Below are positions 20,396 to 34,218 of a stretch of 40,029 nt of DNA, piece by piece. The DNA lies in the sequence record NC_019721.1; one strand, 5' to 3'. Source of the DNA: Enterobacteria phage mEp390. The position numbers and the translations under genes are program-made. The notes under the pieces were generated by a model that saw only the letters and a list, made by a program, of their open reading frames with translations, was not told the origin of the DNA and searched no databases. Positions within the stretch are counted from its first letter, which is position 1. Each line of letters begins with the position of its first letter.

Positions 20396-20662
20396 TCACA
20401 GGCCAACCTGGCGAACGGTCGGGGACTCAGAAACCAGCCATATGTCGGACTCTTCAAACATTTCTTCCAGCATGCGGTTTAGCTTTTCCCGATCGCTTTT
20501 ACTTGCATCGCTATTCAAGCCGTTCGCCTGCATCGGCTTCACCTTCACTTCGGCATCAGGGAAAATCTGATGAACCCGCTTCGTCAGCTCGGCCAGAATG
20601 ATCTCTCTGGCCCCTTCGAGCCCCGCAACATTACGCTTGTCATATACCAGTTCAACAAACAT
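20396..20662 (-). CDS. dinI: DinI-like DNA damage-inducible protein
   Basis: 88-aa ORF with FPD and ESxDxWLVSE motifs matching DinI as recalled; AGAGGG RBS; LexA box about 45 bp upstream. Confidence 0.8.
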   Translation of the reverse strand: MFVELVYDKRNVAGLEGAREIILAELTKRVHQIFPDAEVKVKPMQANGLNSDASKSDREKLNRMLEEMFEESDIWLVSESPTVRQVGL

Positions 20663-20706
20663 TGCTAACCCTCTTGCCTAACTTGATCTGTAATCACAAA
20701 AATACT

Positions 20707-20724
20707 ACTGTATATGCATACAGT
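20707..20724. promoter_or_regulatory. LexA binding site (SOS box)
   Basis: ACTGTATATGCATACAGT, a perfect 18-bp palindrome of CTGT-N8-ACAG type, between divergent dinI-like gene and ORF 20749. Confidence 0.8.
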
Positions 20725-20748
20725 CAATAGTCCAGAGAGGGCGCTCTT

Positions 20749-20988
20749 ATGCCTCGTCAACTTGATATACGTGCAGCCTTTTTAGCGGCCATACAACAGA
20801 ATCCTAAGGGATATCTTTGTTTGAACACTGACAAATTCATCACTGAATTGCGCTTTAGGAATTGGCATTTCAGCCAGGCAGATGCCAATGCCTGGATTAA
20901 GAGATACCAACCAGACTTTGCTGATAAGACGACGGATGGAAGCGATAACCGTTACTGGATCTTGCGTAATATGGGGAGGGTTTTCTGA
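20749..20988 (+). CDS. hypothetical protein, first gene of putative SOS-controlled operon
   Basis: 79-aa ORF with GAGAGGG RBS, 25 bp downstream of LexA box; stop overlaps next start (ATGA). Confidence 0.5.
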   Translation: MPRQLDIRAAFLAAIQQNPKGYLCLNTDKFITELRFRNWHFSQADANAWIKRYQPDFADKTTDGSDNRYWILRNMGRVF

Positions 20989-21308
20989 TGGGCTTTCCTT
21001 CACCTGCTATGGATTACCAGGAACAGCGGTTAACCATAGATCTGTTATGCGGAATTGATGGGAACTGCAGGGTAATAGAAACATCCTGTGGTTGGGCAGT
21101 GATTAACATTGCTCTAAGGCCAGAGCAGGGAGATACGCTACTGGTAAGAATGGATAACAGGAACGAGTTTGCAAAGCTATACGGGGCGGCATTGATAACT
21201 GAAGATGGTGAAGCGATAGAAGGCGACGCGCTGGATGATGTGGAAGTGTTTGGTGTGCTAACGCATAGTCTTAACCGCGTTTGTAATGATGATTGCCCAG
21301 CCATTTAA
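20988..21308 (+). CDS. UmuD'-like S24-fold protein lacking N-terminal tail and probably the catalytic dyad
   Basis: begins M-GFPSPAMDYQEQR, matching the UmuD segment just after its Cys-Gly cleavage site as recalled; C-terminal VEVFGVLTH resembles UmuD DVFGVVIHV; no SGDSM motif seen. Confidence 0.5.
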   Translation: MGFPSPAMDYQEQRLTIDLLCGIDGNCRVIETSCGWAVINIALRPEQGDTLLVRMDNRNEFAKLYGAALITEDGEAIEGDALDDVEVFGVLTHSLNRVCNDDCPAI

Positions 21309-27972: not shown

Positions 27973-28629
27973 TTACAGGTCAGTAACTACTTGTTTTACT
28001 ACACCAACAATTTTGCAGTTACCATTTACTTCCATAACACGATAGTTAGGGTTCAGCGGAACAAGATATTTTAATGGCCCATCAATAACAAACTTTTTGA
28101 GAGTTGCCTCAGCAGAACCGACAATTTGAGCGACAACAATTTTTCCATTTACTTCTTGTGGGCTGCCGTAATCGGGGTCCACCACGACGAATGAGCCTTC
28201 CGGGATACTTGGTGCTCCGTTTGGATTTGTCATCGAGTCACCGCGAACACGTAGTGCAAAACCTTCATCTGATAAGCTGGCCGTAGTGAATATCCATTCG
28301 GAAATATCACCTTCAGTTATTGGAGCTCCACTCTCTGTCCATTCCCCAGCCTGTACCCAAGATAGGATAGGGATTTTCTTTACACCAAACTTCTCAGTCG
28401 GCTTATAAAGAATCTCGTCACAGTCTGGATCACCGTGTCCCGTAATTATCCACTGAGGGTTAGTTTTTAAGGCAGCCGCCAGCCCCTGTAGGTTAGAGCC
28501 ACCAGGTTCATAATCACCAGACTCCCATCCTGTAACCGTTACTCGGTTTACGCCTACCAGCTTGGCGAGAACAGCCTGGGTGAGCTTCAGCTCTTTGCGT
28601 CTTGCGCGGATGCGTTCATTCATTTTCAT
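27973..28629 (-). CDS. cI: CI-like repressor (HTH plus S24 autopeptidase domain)
   Basis: 218-aa ORF with XRE-type HTH (LTQAVLAKLVGVNRVTVTGWE) and S24 motifs (GDSM, later Lys); start codon abuts first operator. Confidence 0.88.
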   Translation of the reverse strand: MKMNERIRARRKELKLTQAVLAKLVGVNRVTVTGWESGDYEPGGSNLQGLAAALKTNPQWIITGHGDPDCDEILYKPTEKFGVKKIPILSWVQAGEWTESGAPITEGDISEWIFTTASLSDEGFALRVRGDSMTNPNGAPSIPEGSFVVVDPDYGSPQEVNGKIVVAQIVGSAEATLKKFVIDGPLKYLVPLNPNYRVMEVNGNCKIVGVVKQVVTDL

Positions 28630-28691
28630 GTAGGCAATCCTACCATTTTATGATGTAGGAATCCTTGACCTCTTAATGTAAGATATCCTAC
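28630..28691. promoter_or_regulatory. oR operator sites with pRM/pR
   Basis: three 14-bp sites GTAGGCAATCCTAC, GTAGGAATCCTTGA, GTAAGATATCCTAC spaced about 23-25 bp between divergent cI and cro. Confidence 0.65.
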
Positions 28692-28728
28692 TATCATGAT
28701 GTGTGTTTCCCTTACATTTGAGGCAAAA

Positions 28729-28926
28729 ATGAAAAAAGATGATGTGGTTTCTTACTTCGGCAGCGTGGGGAACGTAGCGAAGGCATTAGGAATTTCCCAT
28801 GCATCGGTTTCTGGGTGGGGTGAAGTAATCCCAAAAGGTAGGGCATTTGAGATTCAGGCACTGACTTCTGAAAAGCTGAAAGTCGATCCATCCCTTTACG
28901 CAAAGCCTAATCAAAACGCTGCTTAA
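28729..28926 (+). CDS. cro: Cro-like HTH regulator
   Basis: 65-aa product from ATG after GAGG RBS (MKKDDVV...), HTH-like VAKALGISHASVSGW; divergent from cI. Confidence 0.65.
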   Translation: MKKDDVVSYFGSVGNVAKALGISHASVSGWGEVIPKGRAFEIQALTSEKLKVDPSLYAKPNQNAA

Positions 28927-29434: not shown

Positions 29435-29905
29435 ATGGTAGAGCCAAGCCTGAAAGAAGTAGTGAAAACGATGTGCAAAGCGTACCCGGGTGGCCGTGAG
29501 GCTATGGCCGGTGCTCTCGGCATGTCAGTGACGCAGTTCAATAACAACCTGTACGAGAAGAACGGCTGCCGCTTCTTTGAAGTGAACGAGCTGGAAGCGA
29601 TGGAAGACATTTCAAACACGTCTCTCCTGGCTGATTACTTCGCGCAACGTCGCGGCGCTCTGCTGGTGGACGTTCCGCAGTTGGAAGACCTCGATCGCGT
29701 AGACCTGTTTACCCGCGCAATGAGAACTGCAGCAGCACGCGGTCAGGTTGATCAGATTATCCAGAAAGCCCTGGAAGACGGAGTGATTGAGCCGCATGAA
29801 GCCGAAGAGATTAACGAGCATCACCGCCGTCATCTGGCAGCGCGTGAAGAAGAAATACGCGCGATTGTTGCGCTGTTTAGCCGTAAGAAAAGCCCAAAAA
29901 AGTGA
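29435..29905 (+). CDS. phage regulatory protein CII-like (CP76 family)
   Basis: 156-aa ORF, AAGGA RBS; sequence MSVTQFNNNL... resembles CP76-type CII regulators as recalled. Confidence 0.5.
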   Translation: MVEPSLKEVVKTMCKAYPGGREAMAGALGMSVTQFNNNLYEKNGCRFFEVNELEAMEDISNTSLLADYFAQRRGALLVDVPQLEDLDRVDLFTRAMRTAAARGQVDQIIQKALEDGVIEPHEAEEINEHHRRHLAAREEEIRAIVALFSRKKSPKK

Positions 29906-29967: not shown

Positions 29968-30306
29968 ATGAACAGTTTAAACCGATTGAGACCAGCGAAG
30001 CAATTCAGATGCCTTCCACTGGTGGGAAAAGACTCCCCGTTCGGCTATGTGGAGAGATTAAACGACCAGCCTGGTGTGAACAACTACCAGCCTGAGAACG
30101 CGATGGTAGAGGCTTTTGCTCTGATGAACGAGAAGGGGCGTGAGGAATGGCTGAAGTTAACCGGCGGTTCAAAGACCACTACGGCGTCCCGGTCCATGTC
30201 ATCAGATGGGAGCCACAGACTCGACGCGTTATATACCTTCGCGAAGGTTACGATCATGAGTGCTTCAGCCCTCTTGAACAATTCCAGCGTAAATTTACAG
30301 AGTTAA
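29968..30306 (+). CDS. hypothetical protein (uncertain; only N-terminal part looks protein-like)
   Basis: 112-aa ORF with GGAGAAA RBS; C-terminal portion Ser/Thr-rich and overlapped by ORF 30147..30332 in another frame. Confidence 0.3.
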   Translation: MNSLNRLRPAKQFRCLPLVGKDSPFGYVERLNDQPGVNNYQPENAMVEAFALMNEKGREEWLKLTGGSKTTTASRSMSSDGSHRLDALYTFAKVTIMSASALLNNSSVNLQS

Positions 30307-30332
30307 AGGACGACCATGAGCAGAATCTTTGA
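30147..30332 (+). CDS. hypothetical small protein
   Basis: 61-aa ORF with GAGG RBS, end overlaps replication gene start. Confidence 0.35.
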   Translation: MAEVNRRFKDHYGVPVHVIRWEPQTRRVIYLREGYDHECFSPLEQFQRKFTELKDDHEQNL

Positions 30333-31269
30333 CATCGTCCAGTCAATGTCAGGCCAGAAGAACGTCATTGTTCTTCCCAGGCCGTACCTGCTGTTCTTTA
30401 AAGAAGACCAGCAGGCTCATGCGCTGGCGGCAGTTCTTAACAACCTCGTTTTCTGGTCAGCTTTTGGGGGAGAAGACGGCTGGTTCTATAAAACTCACAA
30501 GGAGCTTGGAGCTGAGGCTGGCGAATTAACCGAAGACCAGACAGAGCGGCTGGTTAAAAAGCTGGTAAACAAGTATCTGCCTGGCGTGATCGAGACCTGT
30601 TCTCGAAAGGTCAATGGCACGCCAACCAAGCATTATCGTATCGACGGCGATGCTCTAATTTCATTAATCTTTCCAGAAAATAACGATTACGCAAAAGTAC
30701 GGAATGGAAAACGTGAAGATGCGGAATCAAAACCGCGAAACTGCGTTTCTCAATCCGCGAATAACAGTAATCTTGGGAGCCGCGAAAGTACGGAATCCTA
30801 TCTCTATACAGACTTTAATACAGAGTTAAACAAGCAGACTATTAAACCTATTTGTCCGGTTGCGCCGCAACCAGACGGTGATGTGTTGATCACCGATCAG
30901 GCTAAACAGGTTTTGACCCATCTGAACCAGGTGACCAGTTCGCGTTATCAGGTCTCAACCACTTCGCTGCAAAACATTCGTGCCCGAATTGGGGAAGGTT
31001 ACACCGTTGAAGAGTTATCACTGGTGGTGGACTACTGCAACGCCAAGTGGAGCGAAGACCTGACGATGGCGGCCTACCTTCGACCACAGACGCTTTTCCA
31101 ACCTTCCAAATTCCCTGGCTACCTGAAGTCAGCCAACAGCTGGGCCAAAGCTGGGCGTCCTCGTCGCGTCAACGGAGAGTGGGCCCGAGAAGATGGCGTA
31201 TTCCGTTCCAGCTTCCAGAACACTGACTACAGCAGAATACCGGCAGGTTTCAGAGGAGCGAACTCATGA
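30316..31269 (+). CDS. replication protein (conserved phage C-terminal domain)
   Basis: 317-aa ORF in the O position after cro/cII-like genes; C-terminal segment resembles the conserved phage replication-protein C-terminus. Confidence 0.6.
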   Translation: MSRIFDIVQSMSGQKNVIVLPRPYLLFFKEDQQAHALAAVLNNLVFWSAFGGEDGWFYKTHKELGAEAGELTEDQTERLVKKLVNKYLPGVIETCSRKVNGTPTKHYRIDGDALISLIFPENNDYAKVRNGKREDAESKPRNCVSQSANNSNLGSRESTESYLYTDFNTELNKQTIKPICPVAPQPDGDVLITDQAKQVLTHLNQVTSSRYQVSTTSLQNIRARIGEGYTVEELSLVVDYCNAKWSEDLTMAAYLRPQTLFQPSKFPGYLKSANSWAKAGRPRRVNGEWAREDGVFRSSFQNTDYSRIPAGFRGANS

Positions 31270-31586
31270 TGGAATTAACGCCGCGTCAGAGTGAAGTGCT
31301 GGATGCCATAGTGCTCTACAAGGACAGAACCGGATTCCCGCCCACGATGCTTGAGCTTGCCGGGTTAATCGGCTGTGCATCACCGAACGCTGCTGCTGAG
31401 CACGTGAAGGCGCTCAAGAAAAAGGGTTACATCTCCATTGCTCCTGGCGCTGCCAGGGGCATTACCATCGTCAAAAGTGAATGGGATACAGATCCTGTAT
31501 CGATCGTTAGAGACCTGTTAACCGGTGGAGACAAGGCCAGAGATAACGCTGTTGAATGGCTGAAAAAACAGGGAGTCACTTTATGA
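31266..31586 (+). CDS. LexA N-terminal DNA-binding domain homologue lacking peptidase domain
   Basis: LTPRQSEVLDAI...GFPPT...SPNAAAEHVKALKKKGYI...GAARGI aligns closely by eye with E. coli LexA residues about 4-70 as recalled; only 106 aa. Confidence 0.55.
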   Translation: MMELTPRQSEVLDAIVLYKDRTGFPPTMLELAGLIGCASPNAAAEHVKALKKKGYISIAPGAARGITIVKSEWDTDPVSIVRDLLTGGDKARDNAVEWLKKQGVTL

Positions 31587-31972
31587 AACTGGTGCTCCCA
31601 TTCCCGCCGAGCGTAAACACCTATTGGCGAGCTCCTAACAAGGGGCCGTTAAAAGGCCGCCATCTTATCAGTGAGAAAGGCAGGGCATATCAGAGTGCGG
31701 CCTGCGCAGCGATTATTGAGCAGCTGCGTTGCCTTCCTAAACCATCATCTTCACCAGCTGCGGTGGAGATCCTTCTCTTTCCGCCAGATGCACGCCGCCG
31801 CGACATCGACAACTACAACAAGGCTCTGTTTGACGCGCTTACTCACGCTGGCATCTGGGAGGATGACAGTCAGGTTCAGCGAATGCTGGTGGAGTGGGGC
31901 CCTAAAGTTCCGGGTGGCAGAGTTGAAATAGCGATCACTAAACATCAACCATCTGTAGGGGGAATAGGGTGA
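31583..31972 (+). CDS. rusA: RusA-family Holliday junction resolvase
   Basis: start at ATG after GGGAG RBS (MKLVLPFPPSVNTYW...); RRRDIDN and AGIWEDDSQV motifs match RusA. Confidence 0.8.
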   Translation: MKLVLPFPPSVNTYWRAPNKGPLKGRHLISEKGRAYQSAACAAIIEQLRCLPKPSSSPAAVEILLFPPDARRRDIDNYNKALFDALTHAGIWEDDSQVQRMLVEWGPKVPGGRVEIAITKHQPSVGGIG

Positions 31973-32958
31973 GAGCCATACTGACACCTGAAGTTGCGCC
32001 AATGTCCGGGGTGGTGCTGTTCCGGCCAGGAAATGAGTTGCTGTGGTTGTTTCGTCGCGGCCGGGTGGTTATTGAAACGCCATCTGAAGCTATTCAGCAT
32101 CTGCCATCTGGGCTGATTCCTGAAGCTCACCAGCCACTGACAGATGATGACAGCATGCAGGAACTTTTACTGAACGATCGGGTTATTCTGCGTGCTGGTG
32201 GGCTTAGCAGTCTTGATGCCTGGCTGGAAAGAAAATTCGAATGTCAGTGGCCCCACAATGAATGGCACTCAAAGGACTTTACGGTGATGCGTCACGCACC
32301 CGGAAGCATTCGTCTTTGTTGGGGATGTGATAACCAATTACGTGAACAAACCACTGAAAGACTGGCAGGAATTGCCATGCAGAACCTGTTAAAATGGCTG
32401 CTCGAACGGGTGAATATTATGCTGGGCTTTAGTGCAGACCACACCCTGACGTTACCGGAGTTCTGCTGGTGGATGGTACGTAACGATCTGGCCGACCTTA
32501 TTCCTGAATCAGTGGCCAGTAAAGCCCTCAGGATTAAGCCTGAATCGCACAGCCCAGTAATGCGAGAAAGCGACATTGTTCCGTCATTACCGGCAACTGA
32601 AATCCTCCAGGAGAAAGTTAAGAAGATAGTCTCGGTGAAGGTCGATCCTGAATCACAGGAATCTTTCATGCTGAGGCCAAAGCGTCGCCGCTGGGAGAAC
32701 GATAAGTACACCCGCTGGGTTAAGTCGCAGAAGTGCAGTTGCTGCAATAACCCGGCAGACGATCCCCACCACCTGATAGGCCACGGGCAGGGTGGAATGG
32801 GTACCAAAGCGCACGACCTGTTTGTGATACCGCTGTGCAGAGCGCATCACGATGAGTTGCACGCTGATCCTGTGGCATTTGAAGCGAAGCACGGCGACCA
32901 GTTAACGCTGTTGTTTCGGTTTTTAGATCGTGCGCTGGCAATTGGCGTATTAGCATGA
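31969..32958 (+). CDS. DUF968-like protein with C-terminal Cys/His HNH-like motif
   Basis: 329-aa ORF; C-terminus CSCCNNPADDPHHLIGHGQGG...CRAHHDELH. Confidence 0.55.
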   Translation: MRAILTPEVAPMSGVVLFRPGNELLWLFRRGRVVIETPSEAIQHLPSGLIPEAHQPLTDDDSMQELLLNDRVILRAGGLSSLDAWLERKFECQWPHNEWHSKDFTVMRHAPGSIRLCWGCDNQLREQTTERLAGIAMQNLLKWLLERVNIMLGFSADHTLTLPEFCWWMVRNDLADLIPESVASKALRIKPESHSPVMRESDIVPSLPATEILQEKVKKIVSVKVDPESQESFMLRPKRRRWENDKYTRWVKSQKCSCCNNPADDPHHLIGHGQGGMGTKAHDLFVIPLCRAHHDELHADPVAFEAKHGDQLTLLFRFLDRALAIGVLA

Positions 32959-33338
32959 AAAGTGGAGAAAACATGCGTGATATTCAGATGGTTTTAGAGC
33001 GCTGGGGTGGATGGGCCGCGAGTGATAGTTCCGGAGTCGATTACTCATCAATAGCCGCTGGTTTCAAAGGACTTCTTCCCCCGACAAGCAAATCCCGCCC
33101 GTCATGTACTGATGACGATGCCCTAATTATCGAGGGGTGTTTAGCTCGACTTCAAAAACGCAAGCCCTATGAACATTCGCTTTTGGTTGCACACTATCTC
33201 TATGGCATATCGAAGAGGAAAATAGCGAAAGCACGTAAGAAGGATGAGAAGATAATTAGAATAGAGATACAGATGGCCGAAGGCTTTATCGATGGATGTC
33301 TTTCCATGCTTGACGTTTGTTTAGAAATGGATTGTTAA
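32955..33338 (+). CDS. late-gene antiterminator Q-like protein
   Basis: 127-aa ORF in Q position before the lysis cassette; N-terminus MRDIQMVLERWGGWAA resembles Q-family antiterminators as recalled. Confidence 0.6.
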   Translation: MKSGENMRDIQMVLERWGGWAASDSSGVDYSSIAAGFKGLLPPTSKSRPSCTDDDALIIEGCLARLQKRKPYEHSLLVAHYLYGISKRKIAKARKKDEKIIRIEIQMAEGFIDGCLSMLDVCLEMDC

Positions 33339-33399: not shown

Positions 33400-34218
33400 T
33401 TATTCAGGGCTTGGGAAAGCGTTTGGTGGCATAAATTGTTGGAGGGCATATCTTATTTGAAGTCTAATGTAGTCCTCTGGAAAATCAGATCGATCTAAAG
33501 ATGATATAATTTCTTCTTCGTTAAATATGCCTGCCTTAATCATTTCATTTATCTTTGTCTTCATGCGCATTAAAATGTCTGTTCTGTTTATCTGGCGCGG
33601 GTATCGGATATTCGCGGAAATTTCACGAGAGTTGCTTTCTAACTCTCTAACTTGATGGGCTAAAATGCGTGTGTTGTTTAAAATTTCAGCCAACATGTCT
33701 TTATCAGTGCGAGCTGGAACGACCTCGTTAGGTTGATTATTGCTGAGGGCTCTACTAAATCCTTCTTCAAATTGAGGCCAGTAAGTTTCAAAAGCCTTTG
33801 CCAGGATATCATCAGGTAATTTACTTTCATCAAGTAATGAATTAATTGTTTTGAGGAGTTTAAAAACGCTATCTTTATTTTGAGTTGTATGGTTGAACTG
33901 AGAAAGTGGTGCTTCTAGGTCTTCAGGTTTTAAATCAATCAAAAATGTACACACTCTATTATCAGGAAGCCCTTTTGTTAGTGCTCCCGTTTCGAAAAGA
34001 ATCCACGGTTTATTTTTGTTTTCTTGAGTCAAGAAAACTACGCCTATTGAGACGTCCTTTAAAATTTCATTAATTTCGGAGAACCAGATTGCACCACGGT
34101 CAATATCTTTAGTTGAAATCCAAGGTTGTGCTGCTTGAATTACGCACTTCAACCATCCATTAAATTCTTCAGCAACAGCTTGGCTACGGTTTCCAGACCA
34201 ACTTAAGAATATTTTCAC
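33400..34218 (-). CDS. TIR-like domain protein with C-terminal helical domain of unknown function
   Basis: 272-aa ORF, GTG start with AAAGAGGT RBS; N-terminus KIFLSWSG...DIDRG..W....I.E.L....VVFLT...W.LFETGAL fits TIR beta-alpha pattern; markedly AT-rich. Confidence 0.55.
   Translation of the reverse strand: MKIFLSWSGNRSQAVAEEFNGWLKCVIQAAQPWISTKDIDRGAIWFSEINEILKDVSIGVVFLTQENKNKPWILFETGALTKGLPDNRVCTFLIDLKPEDLEAPLSQFNHTTQNKDSVFKLLKTINSLLDESKLPDDILAKAFETYWPQFEEGFSRALSNNQPNEVVPARTDKDMLAEILNNTRILAHQVRELESNSREISANIRYPRQINRTDILMRMKTKINEMIKAGIFNEEEIISSLDRSDFPEDYIRLQIRYALQQFMPPNAFPSPE

Follow-up and report, generated by a model that had tools for sequence, protein, structure and literature searches.

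The LexA repressor of Escherichia coli is inactivated by RecA*-stimulated self-cleavage, which needs its C-terminal domain, and the resulting fragments are degraded (PMC3159453). On the operator, contacts between the N-terminal domains add ~1000-fold to the stability of the LexA dimer (PMC3159453). The LexA DNA-binding domain alone does not repress sulA-lacZ, and repression is obtained when it is fused to any dimerising partner (PMC7595419, PMC12430536). Among phages, the Bacillus tectivirus GIL01 encodes a truncated LexA homologue, gp6, which recognises GaCACAnnTGTGaC by means of K38 and activates a late promoter (PMC6182141). Here we describe a 106-amino-acid (aa) protein of Enterobacteria phage mEp390, whose DNA (NC_019721.1; 40,029 nucleotides, nt) was analysed over its full length and is referred to as the window. 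The protein consists of a LexA DNA-binding head followed by a short helical tail, with no self-cleaving domain. Its gene and the preceding ribosome-binding site are located as follows:

31266..31586, plus strand: coding sequence of the LexA-like protein, which has the DNA-binding domain only; 106 aa, stop codon included (open reading frame list, PF01726, PHROG 362, and exact protein identity)
31253..31258, plus strand: Shine-Dalgarno sequence GAGGAG, read from the sequence, 7 nt ahead of the ATG

The product is identical to YP_007112460.1 (AFM76139.1), annotated as a "transcriptional repressor" of Enterobacteria phage mEp390, and the stretch is also present in IMG/VR as UViG_2595698476_000001. 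In an earlier note on this DNA, the first 65 residues had been aligned by eye with the DNA-binding domain of LexA, and profile searches bore this out. Pfam PF01726 (LexA_DNA_bind) matched residues 1–65 over the whole model (1–65 of 65; E=8.4e-21, 74 bits for a cut-off of 23.7), and phmmer against the PDB returned the LexA chains 1lea, 1jhh, and 3jso (E ~1e-16) in an alignment that reproduces the by-eye pattern. With hhalign, the probability against full-length LexA was 99.9. These searches all point to LexA and to no unrelated family. Over residues 2–77 of E. coli LexA the alignment is gapless, with ~50% identity. Most of the residues that do not vary in the LexA N-terminal domain are invariant in the phage family too (T5, Q8, G23, P25-P26-T27, G36, S39, N41, A43, K53, and R64-G65-I66).

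The same note held that there is no S24 peptidase domain, and this was also found. The Pfam scan of the 106-aa protein gave no domain besides PF01726, and no Peptidase_S24. The NCBIfam LexA equivalog TIGR00498 scored 68.9 bits, below its cut-off of 110.95, and aligned residues 1–94 with profile positions 1–96 of 203; since this match is limited to the N-terminal half, the S24 domain is absent. Neither the Ser119-Lys156 dyad nor the S24 peptidase-dimerisation domain was found in the protein by Pfam, TIGR00498, or hhalign. Thus, whereas LexA has 202 aa, the phage protein has 106 and lacks S24, the Ser/Lys dyad, and the A84-G85 site. PADLOC gave no defence-family match for it. A chance or decayed reading frame was ruled out, as full-length homologues number in the hundreds and their DNA-binding face does not vary. 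The gene product is very probably a sequence-specific DNA-binding regulator.

A model of the protein was obtained with AlphaFold2 (AF2) from 34 sequences, with a mean predicted local distance difference test score (pLDDT) of 86.7 and a predicted template modelling score (pTM) of 0.62, a pTM value that would fit a mobile junction between head and tail. The parts of the protein are:

31266..31469, plus strand: winged helix-turn-helix, residues 1–68 (helices 6–22, 28–35, and 40–52; strands 56–58 and 66–68), homologous to the LexA N-terminal domain
31383..31421, plus strand: recognition helix 3, residues 40–52, PNAAAEHVKALKK, with S39 directly before the helix
31470..31493, plus strand: flexible linker, residues 69–76, of low confidence and variable (a 10-residue block averages a pLDDT of 64; high column entropy)
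31494..31568, plus strand: helical hairpin, residues 77–101 (helices 77–86 and 91–101), pLDDT 87–89, conserved in the family

The modelled head superposes on the LexA N-terminal domain structures (PDB 1lea, 3jso) at 1.2–1.5 Å over ~70 residues. The helix-3 residues of LexA listed as contacting DNA are S39, N41, A42, E44, and E45 (PMC3091678, PMC13416735). The window protein retains S39, N41, A42, and E45 (4/5) and has Ala in place of E44; conservation of these contacts, proposed earlier as a check, thus holds at every position except this one. Residue conservation was computed over 220 distinct family sequences. Around helix 3, S39, N41, and K53 are each conserved at 100%, A43 at 98%, and A42 at 96%. 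Elsewhere, R64-G65-I66 and the residues T5, R7, and Q8 reach 98–99%, and P25-P26-T27 is essentially invariant. The DNA-binding surface appears to be under strong purifying selection.

The earlier description of a stand-alone DNA-binding domain was right as to the missing S24 domain and overlooked the tail, for in place of the C-terminal domain of LexA the protein carries a conserved helical hairpin of 25 residues. Its conserved residues (V78, I80, V81, L84, L85, G87, A91, R92, A95, V96, W98, and L99, also G103) include ~10 hydrophobic ones, and the amphipathic hairpin is too small for stability on its own. Among the weaker PDB fold matches, ranked below LexA, are winged-helix repressors such as members of the MntR/DtxR and Rrf2 families. 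These repressors dimerise through C-terminal helices. From the model, the hairpin is a putative dimerisation element.

The homology to LexA extends beyond the head. The hhalign alignment ends at LexA residue 87, past the hinge and the cleavage-site region, where PVSIVRDLLTGGD is aligned with GLPLVGRVAAGEP; column confidence is low at this C-terminal end, and the first tail helix aligns weakly there. At the position of the A84-G85 site the window protein has T86-G87, so that the Ala-Gly of self-cleavage is absent. In the family, the residue aligned to LexA A84 is Ser in 63% of the sequences, Asn in 10%, Glu in 9%, Thr in 5%, and Ala in 5%, while the Gly aligned to G85 is conserved at 90% and the A-G pair is retained in the clade of phage SfV. 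The earlier claim that no linker cleavage site is present stands for the Ala-Gly pair, and homology to the surrounding region can still be traced. That the protein is a cleavable substrate is not supported, the scissile Ala being mostly replaced in the family. The family may have arisen from a LexA truncated just beyond the cleavage site and capped by an extra helix.

This vestigial segment raises the question of whether the protein acts on other proteins, with DNA binding secondary. In such a case, the hinge and cleavage segment together with the tail would serve S24 peptidases (host LexA, CI, or UmuD) or RecA* as a pseudo-substrate or a docking piece. The homology up to residue 87, the 90% conserved Gly with the A-G pair of the SfV clade, and the example of GIL01 gp7, a small phage protein that binds LexA and blocks its cleavage, would agree with this. 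However, column confidence across the cleavage-site segment is low, AF2 gives a helix where the cleavage region of LexA forms a strand-loop, the Gly is mostly preceded by Ser, Asn, Glu, or Thr, and the strongest conservation lies on the DNA-binding face. We consider this explanation very improbable.

Two further forms of LexA help to place the protein. ClpXP recognises the exposed end (...VAA) of the N-terminal LexA fragment, and the phage protein has no such end. This cleavage fragment (residues 1–84) is roughly the same piece of LexA and is rapidly degraded by ClpXP and Lon (PMC3159453), whereas the phage protein looks stable and has an extra C-terminal helix. Engineered two-hybrid fusions, in which LexA 1–87 is joined to a partner, have the same arrangement of DNA-binding domain, linker, and heterologous module, without the C-terminal domain; they differ in being synthetic, dimerisation by the mEp390 tail being predicted. 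By analogy, such a fusion could serve as a working model for the phage protein. As the bare LexA DNA-binding domain does not repress, the idea that the protein occupies SOS boxes depends on the predicted dimerising role of the tail.

The mechanism that we favour, tentatively, is that the protein forms a dimer through its tail and binds LexA-type SOS boxes without being sensitive to RecA. The protein would descend from a LexA in which the S24 domain for self-cleavage and dimerisation was lost and a short C-terminal helix acquired. It would be expressed as a delayed-early product of pR, after CI inactivation or infection, by translational coupling between the replication initiator and RusA. The hairpin would dimerise it, and the paired LexA-type heads would bind CTGT-N8-ACAG, both in the host regulon and at a phage box (20706–20725) shared by dinI-like and UmuD'-like genes. 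Lacking both a catalytic domain and the Ala-Gly site, the dimer could not be removed by RecA*, and SOS promoters would be kept in, or returned to, a repressed state during the destruction of host LexA. The RecA-independent occupancy of SOS boxes proposed in the earlier note, and its uncoupling from RecA-dependent cleavage, are plausible. The larger claim, that this is a natural RecA-proof SOS repressor by which lambdoid prophages, once induced or after infecting a cell, silence the host SOS regulon again, to their own benefit, must be regarded as doubtful at present. If it were true, the targets would include error-prone polymerases, SulA, SOS-controlled toxins, and LexA-controlled antirepressors of rival prophages.

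The window contains a candidate target of this kind, accompanied by other SOS-related genes:

20706..20725: canonical LexA (SOS) box TACTGTATATGCATACAGTC, with a perfect CTGT-N8-ACAG core at 20708–20723, in a moron region where the dinI-like and UmuD'-like genes diverge; candidate phage-borne target
20727..20699, minus strand: promoter-like TTGACT-17-TATTTT, overlapping the SOS box, ahead of the DinI-like gene
20396..20662, minus strand: DinI-like gene (Pfam DinI, E=1e-21), under the LexA box
20749–20988, plus strand: 79-aa open reading frame (PHROG 3893), with the SOS box 26 nt upstream
20988..21308, plus strand: gene for a UmuD'-like protein (PHROG 3469, "UmuD-like protein", E=1e-47; BLASTP to UmuD, E=6e-8)

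An SOS box near 20707 and a separate UmuD'-like protein had both been noticed before, correctly. The box has the only perfect core in the window and is the only match at ≤3 mismatches to the 20-mer consensus (0 expected). LexA boxes with one mismatch numbered 18 in the window, for 12 expected, none of them convincing, and CTGT-Nn-ACAG and ACAG-Nn-CTGT arrangements with n=0–20 were not enriched in the window over shuffled sequences, the N8 box at 20708 being the only credible one. The UmuD'-like protein begins at the equivalent of UmuD G25, as if "pre-cleaved", and the BLASTP match starts there; no GDSM catalytic Ser motif and no Pfam S24 match were found in it. It is apparently co-transcribed with the 79-aa reading frame under the LexA box. 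With the DinI-like and UmuD'-like modulators and an S24-type CI, mEp390 has an SOS theme. The strong box overlapping a promoter-like site, together with near-consensus boxes that recur in the early regions of relatives carrying the LexA-like gene, provides context that supports the favoured mechanism.

Several observations weigh against this mechanism. Across the 220 family sequences, A, T, or V always takes the place of LexA E44, and M, I, L, or Q that of R28, and E45 is variable (E 68%, D 18%, A 10%); with two positions replaced family-wide and a third variable, specificity or affinity may differ from those of LexA. DinI morons with LexA boxes beside tail-fibre genes are known in temperate phages (PMC7556043), and the lone box of the window, belonging to a dinI moron of this common kind, is in the first place a site for host LexA and provides no specific link to the LexA-like gene. 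The only characterised analogue, GIL01 gp6, uses a palindrome that is not of the LexA type and activates transcription. A tight linkage to RusA and methyltransferase genes, described below, is left unexplained by an SOS repressor. Finally, the literature search found no binding, oligomerisation, or expression study of any member of the family.

The main rival is, accordingly, a dedicated phage regulator with its own operator, similar to GIL01 gp6. Its LexA head would have drifted towards a site particular to the phage, and it would control, positively or negatively, a promoter of the phage (in the nin region, a moron, or the late region, for example) and not the SOS regulon. Like gp6, a truncated LexA homologue that binds GaCACAnnTGTGaC on its own and activates P3, the mEp390 protein is essentially a LexA DNA-binding domain without a catalytic domain and is encoded among early genes. 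The family-specific substitutions at LexA positions 28 and 44, and variably at 45 and 46, the presence of LexA-DNA-binding-domain-only proteins (65–150 aa) in many unrelated phage groups, and the PHROG label "transcriptional repressor" would all be in agreement with a private operator. On the other hand, gp6 has no helical tail, whereas the mEp390 protein has the tail as well as the S-P-N-A-A-x-E helix of LexA; in the alignment with LexA, helix 3 in the window keeps S-P-N-A-A and E45. The gp6-type operator has 0 matches at ≤2 mismatches in the window, and CTGT/ACAG palindromes at other spacings are, as noted, not enriched. Moreover, mEp390 is lambdoid, with its late genes served by the Q antiterminator, so that a late activator is unneeded, and the gene has neither its own promoter nor an intergenic region for an autoregulatory site. 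A private operator is in our opinion somewhat unlikely, and it is still the most probable of the rivals considered.

Although the gene might be taken for an oddity of mEp390, both it and its family are already annotated and are very common in prophages. The protein matches PHROG 362 ("transcriptional repressor") along its length (E=6.5e-46, residues 1–105 to 1–105 of 106). Its close homologues number 213, nearly all of 104–109 aa, carry the NCBI label "LexA family transcriptional regulator", and come mostly from the Enterobacter cloacae complex, Leclercia, Salmonella, and E. coli. At 47% identity, with the same length and the same position directly before RusA, are SfV orf42 and mEp460 gp46; genes of cdtI, SfII, SfIV, and the Stx2a and Stx2c phages are homologues at the same identity. 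The mEp390 gene differs from orf42 and gp46 in directly following the initiator and not a methyltransferase, and in that its allele is rare in E. coli. Of 5426 complete E. coli genomes, 2233 (~41%) carry the SfV-type allele (≥95% nucleotide identity), in up to four copies each, whereas the mEp390-type allele forms a clade found mostly in Enterobacter and Leclercia, with seven partial matches in E. coli.

An exhaustive search of representatives returned hundreds more short proteins with a LexA DNA-binding domain, of 65–170 aa and with varied tails, and a viral structure library held LexA-DNA-binding-domain-only proteins in mycobacteriophages, tectiviruses, and uncultured phages. Four proteins of the representative library (P0129, P0130, P0135, and P0139) have two tandem LexA DNA-binding domains in one chain, without S24, and look like covalent pseudo-dimers of the LexA head. 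A profile scan of genome contigs with a narrow alignment gave eight loci, four of them ordinary full-length LexA. Megablast of positions 30300–32000 against the phage collection gave no match, that collection evidently lacking the mEp390 record itself, and a scan of viral contigs with the distant member P0171 gave none either. In the full-text literature searched, no functional study of the enterobacterial family was found, its members being mentioned only as annotation.

The gene lies in the early operon of the phage, among the following genes and signals:

27973..28629, minus strand: CI-type prophage repressor (HTH_3 and Peptidase_S24), the RecA-cleavable immunity repressor of mEp390
28665..28694, plus strand: pR-like promoter ahead of cro, from a consensus scan only
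28696–28926: cro
29435–29905: cII-like gene
30316..31269, plus strand: O-like/DnaD-like replication initiator (Phg_2220_C), whose stop overlaps the start of the LexA-like gene
31583..31972, plus strand: RusA Holliday-junction resolvase (Pfam RusA, E=1e-16), whose start codon shares an ATGA with the TGA stop of the LexA-like gene
31969–32958: DUF968/HNH gene
32955–33338: Q antiterminator

The ATG of the LexA-like gene likewise shares an ATGA (31266–31269) with the stop of the initiator gene. For RusA, the ATG at 31583 is the likely start, being preceded by AGGGAG, and the Pfam RusA match begins at residue 15 of the longer reading frame. Since the consensus scan found no other plus-strand promoter-like site between pR and 34214, pR is the presumed promoter of the operon, and the LexA-like gene is most simply seen as a delayed-early product of it. 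Two other features of this part of the phage were observed. In the middle of the O-like initiator gene, at 30690–30830, are iteron-like direct repeats (CGC[A/G]AAAGTACGGAAT twice, and TACAGA[C/G]TT[T/A]AA in tandem), which, as in lambda, are a likely origin of replication. On the minus strand at 33400–34218, between Q and the lysis region, is a gene for a 272-aa TIR-domain protein (PADLOC PDLC03016 "TIR-TM", E=1.6e-57; Pfam TIR_2), which is likely a prophage-borne anti-phage defence moron.

Gene context was compared in 80 IMG/VR loci (57–100% identity), 44 loci of a Cronobacter clade (~40%), four genome loci, and two phage records, with the following results:

RusA directly downstream with stop/start overlap, window and SfV clades: 79 of 79 evaluable loci
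RusA directly downstream, Cronobacter clade: 27 of 40 loci
RusA directly downstream, Enterobacter and Kosakonia genome loci: 4 of 4
DNA methyltransferase upstream within 400 nt: 106 of ~126 loci
Families of the upstream methyltransferase: MT-A70 in 57 loci, Dam (PF05869) in 32, C5 Dcm-like in 11 (assigned by the GGTPCQ motif and not by a Pfam run), and N6_N4 (PF01555) in 6
O-like initiator directly upstream: 8 of ~126 loci, the window included

The earlier note had placed the gene in the replication module. This is accurate for its position beside the initiator in mEp390, and it misses that the conserved partners are RusA and, usually, a methyltransferase; these partners place the gene where the nin region begins. 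In the window itself a methyltransferase is absent, and the LexA-like gene comes directly after the initiator. In the other loci, the methyltransferase slot appears to be subject to non-orthologous replacement at a fixed position, by members of four unrelated families. A 75-aa reading frame often lies between the methyltransferase and the LexA-like gene (loci L004–L130). Where the Cronobacter-clade gene is not followed by RusA, other genes come next, among them those for a Rha/ANT antirepressor, a 221-aa unknown, and a 251-aa protein matching PHROG 887 (labelled queuine tRNA-ribosyltransferase).

So regular an arrangement could mean that the protein is an accessory factor of a methyltransferase/LexA-like/RusA cassette, for example limiting the effects of methylation or DNA breakage, or directing or tempering RusA through tail contacts or at particular DNA. 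The overlap with RusA in all or most loci of each set, the methyltransferase in most loci, and the persistence of the LexA-like/RusA pair while the upstream genes vary would be expected of such a cassette. Against it, the Cronobacter-clade protein also precedes genes other than RusA, the window has no methyltransferase, and the adjacency can be accounted for by co-inheritance of a mosaic block with no functional link. In addition, 406 phage records contain a RusA homologue and only 66 contain the LexA-like gene, which means that the LexA-like gene accompanies one RusA subclade and not RusA generally. Variants in which this head is joined to another tail, of ~85 aa and partly matching PHROGs 24920 and 29443 (L127:6001–6453, L079, and P0125), also have RusA next to them. 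In two of these (L127 and L079) the RusA is near-identical, so the tail is not RusA-specific, and the idea that it is a RusA-specific docking module was down-weighted. An accessory role in the cassette is thus improbable, and the linkage to RusA and methyltransferases is a real regularity, unexplained so far, that may reflect a co-inherited mosaic block.

LexA-type operators are embedded in the early regions of other phages that carry the gene. The counts given here cover gene-carrying phages only and do not imply enrichment. In related phages, the gene for a 231-aa CI-type repressor with helix-turn-helix and S24 domains contains a near-consensus LexA box (TACTGTATATATAAACAGT) within its coding sequence, in the otherwise variable inter-domain linker (L009:1451–1466, L013:2432, L018:2501, L054–L056, L066:767, L069:3116, and L090:1192). 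The box was present in nine of nine loci with that cI allele, though the neighbouring amino acids diverge, which suggests that a LexA operator within cI is selected for at the level of DNA. In four loci (L070:2469–2484, L077:5942, L080:6681, and L082:6681), a LexA box, CTGTT(C/T)AAACATACAG, with TATAAAT ahead of it, directly follows the RusA stop and precedes the gene of a 267-aa KilA-N-type regulator (PHROG 129). This regulator or antirepressor, beside the LexA-like/RusA pair, is presumably LexA-controlled. The moron position that separates Q from the lysis genes in SfV itself (L135) also holds a good LexA box (TACTGTAAAAATAAACAGTG, 34172–34187), at the 5' end of orf48.

The annotated gene and family, and the characterisation of a truncated phage LexA homologue in GIL01, were already known. 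To this, the present analysis adds the residue pattern of the family, the vestigial homology to the cleavage-site region, and the helical tail, as well as the coupling to RusA, the methyltransferase slot, and the LexA boxes of relatives within cI and ahead of the KilA-N gene. DNA repair, mutagenesis, antibiotic tolerance, and the induction of most temperate phages, those encoding Shiga toxin among them, are all under the control of the SOS response. The very high prevalence of the family in E. coli and in Stx prophages lifts it above the routine. If the protein has an operator of its own, GIL01 gp6 would no longer be the only known LexA head that serves as a phage-specific regulator; the mEp390 protein would be the second, and the first in Gram-negative lambdoid phages. 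If, instead, it is a RecA-resistant LexA head acting on SOS boxes, it would be a simple viral override of the SOS circuit, and the family would represent a widespread and overlooked factor in SOS dynamics, mutagenesis, and prophage competition, and possibly in the induction of Shiga-toxin phages.

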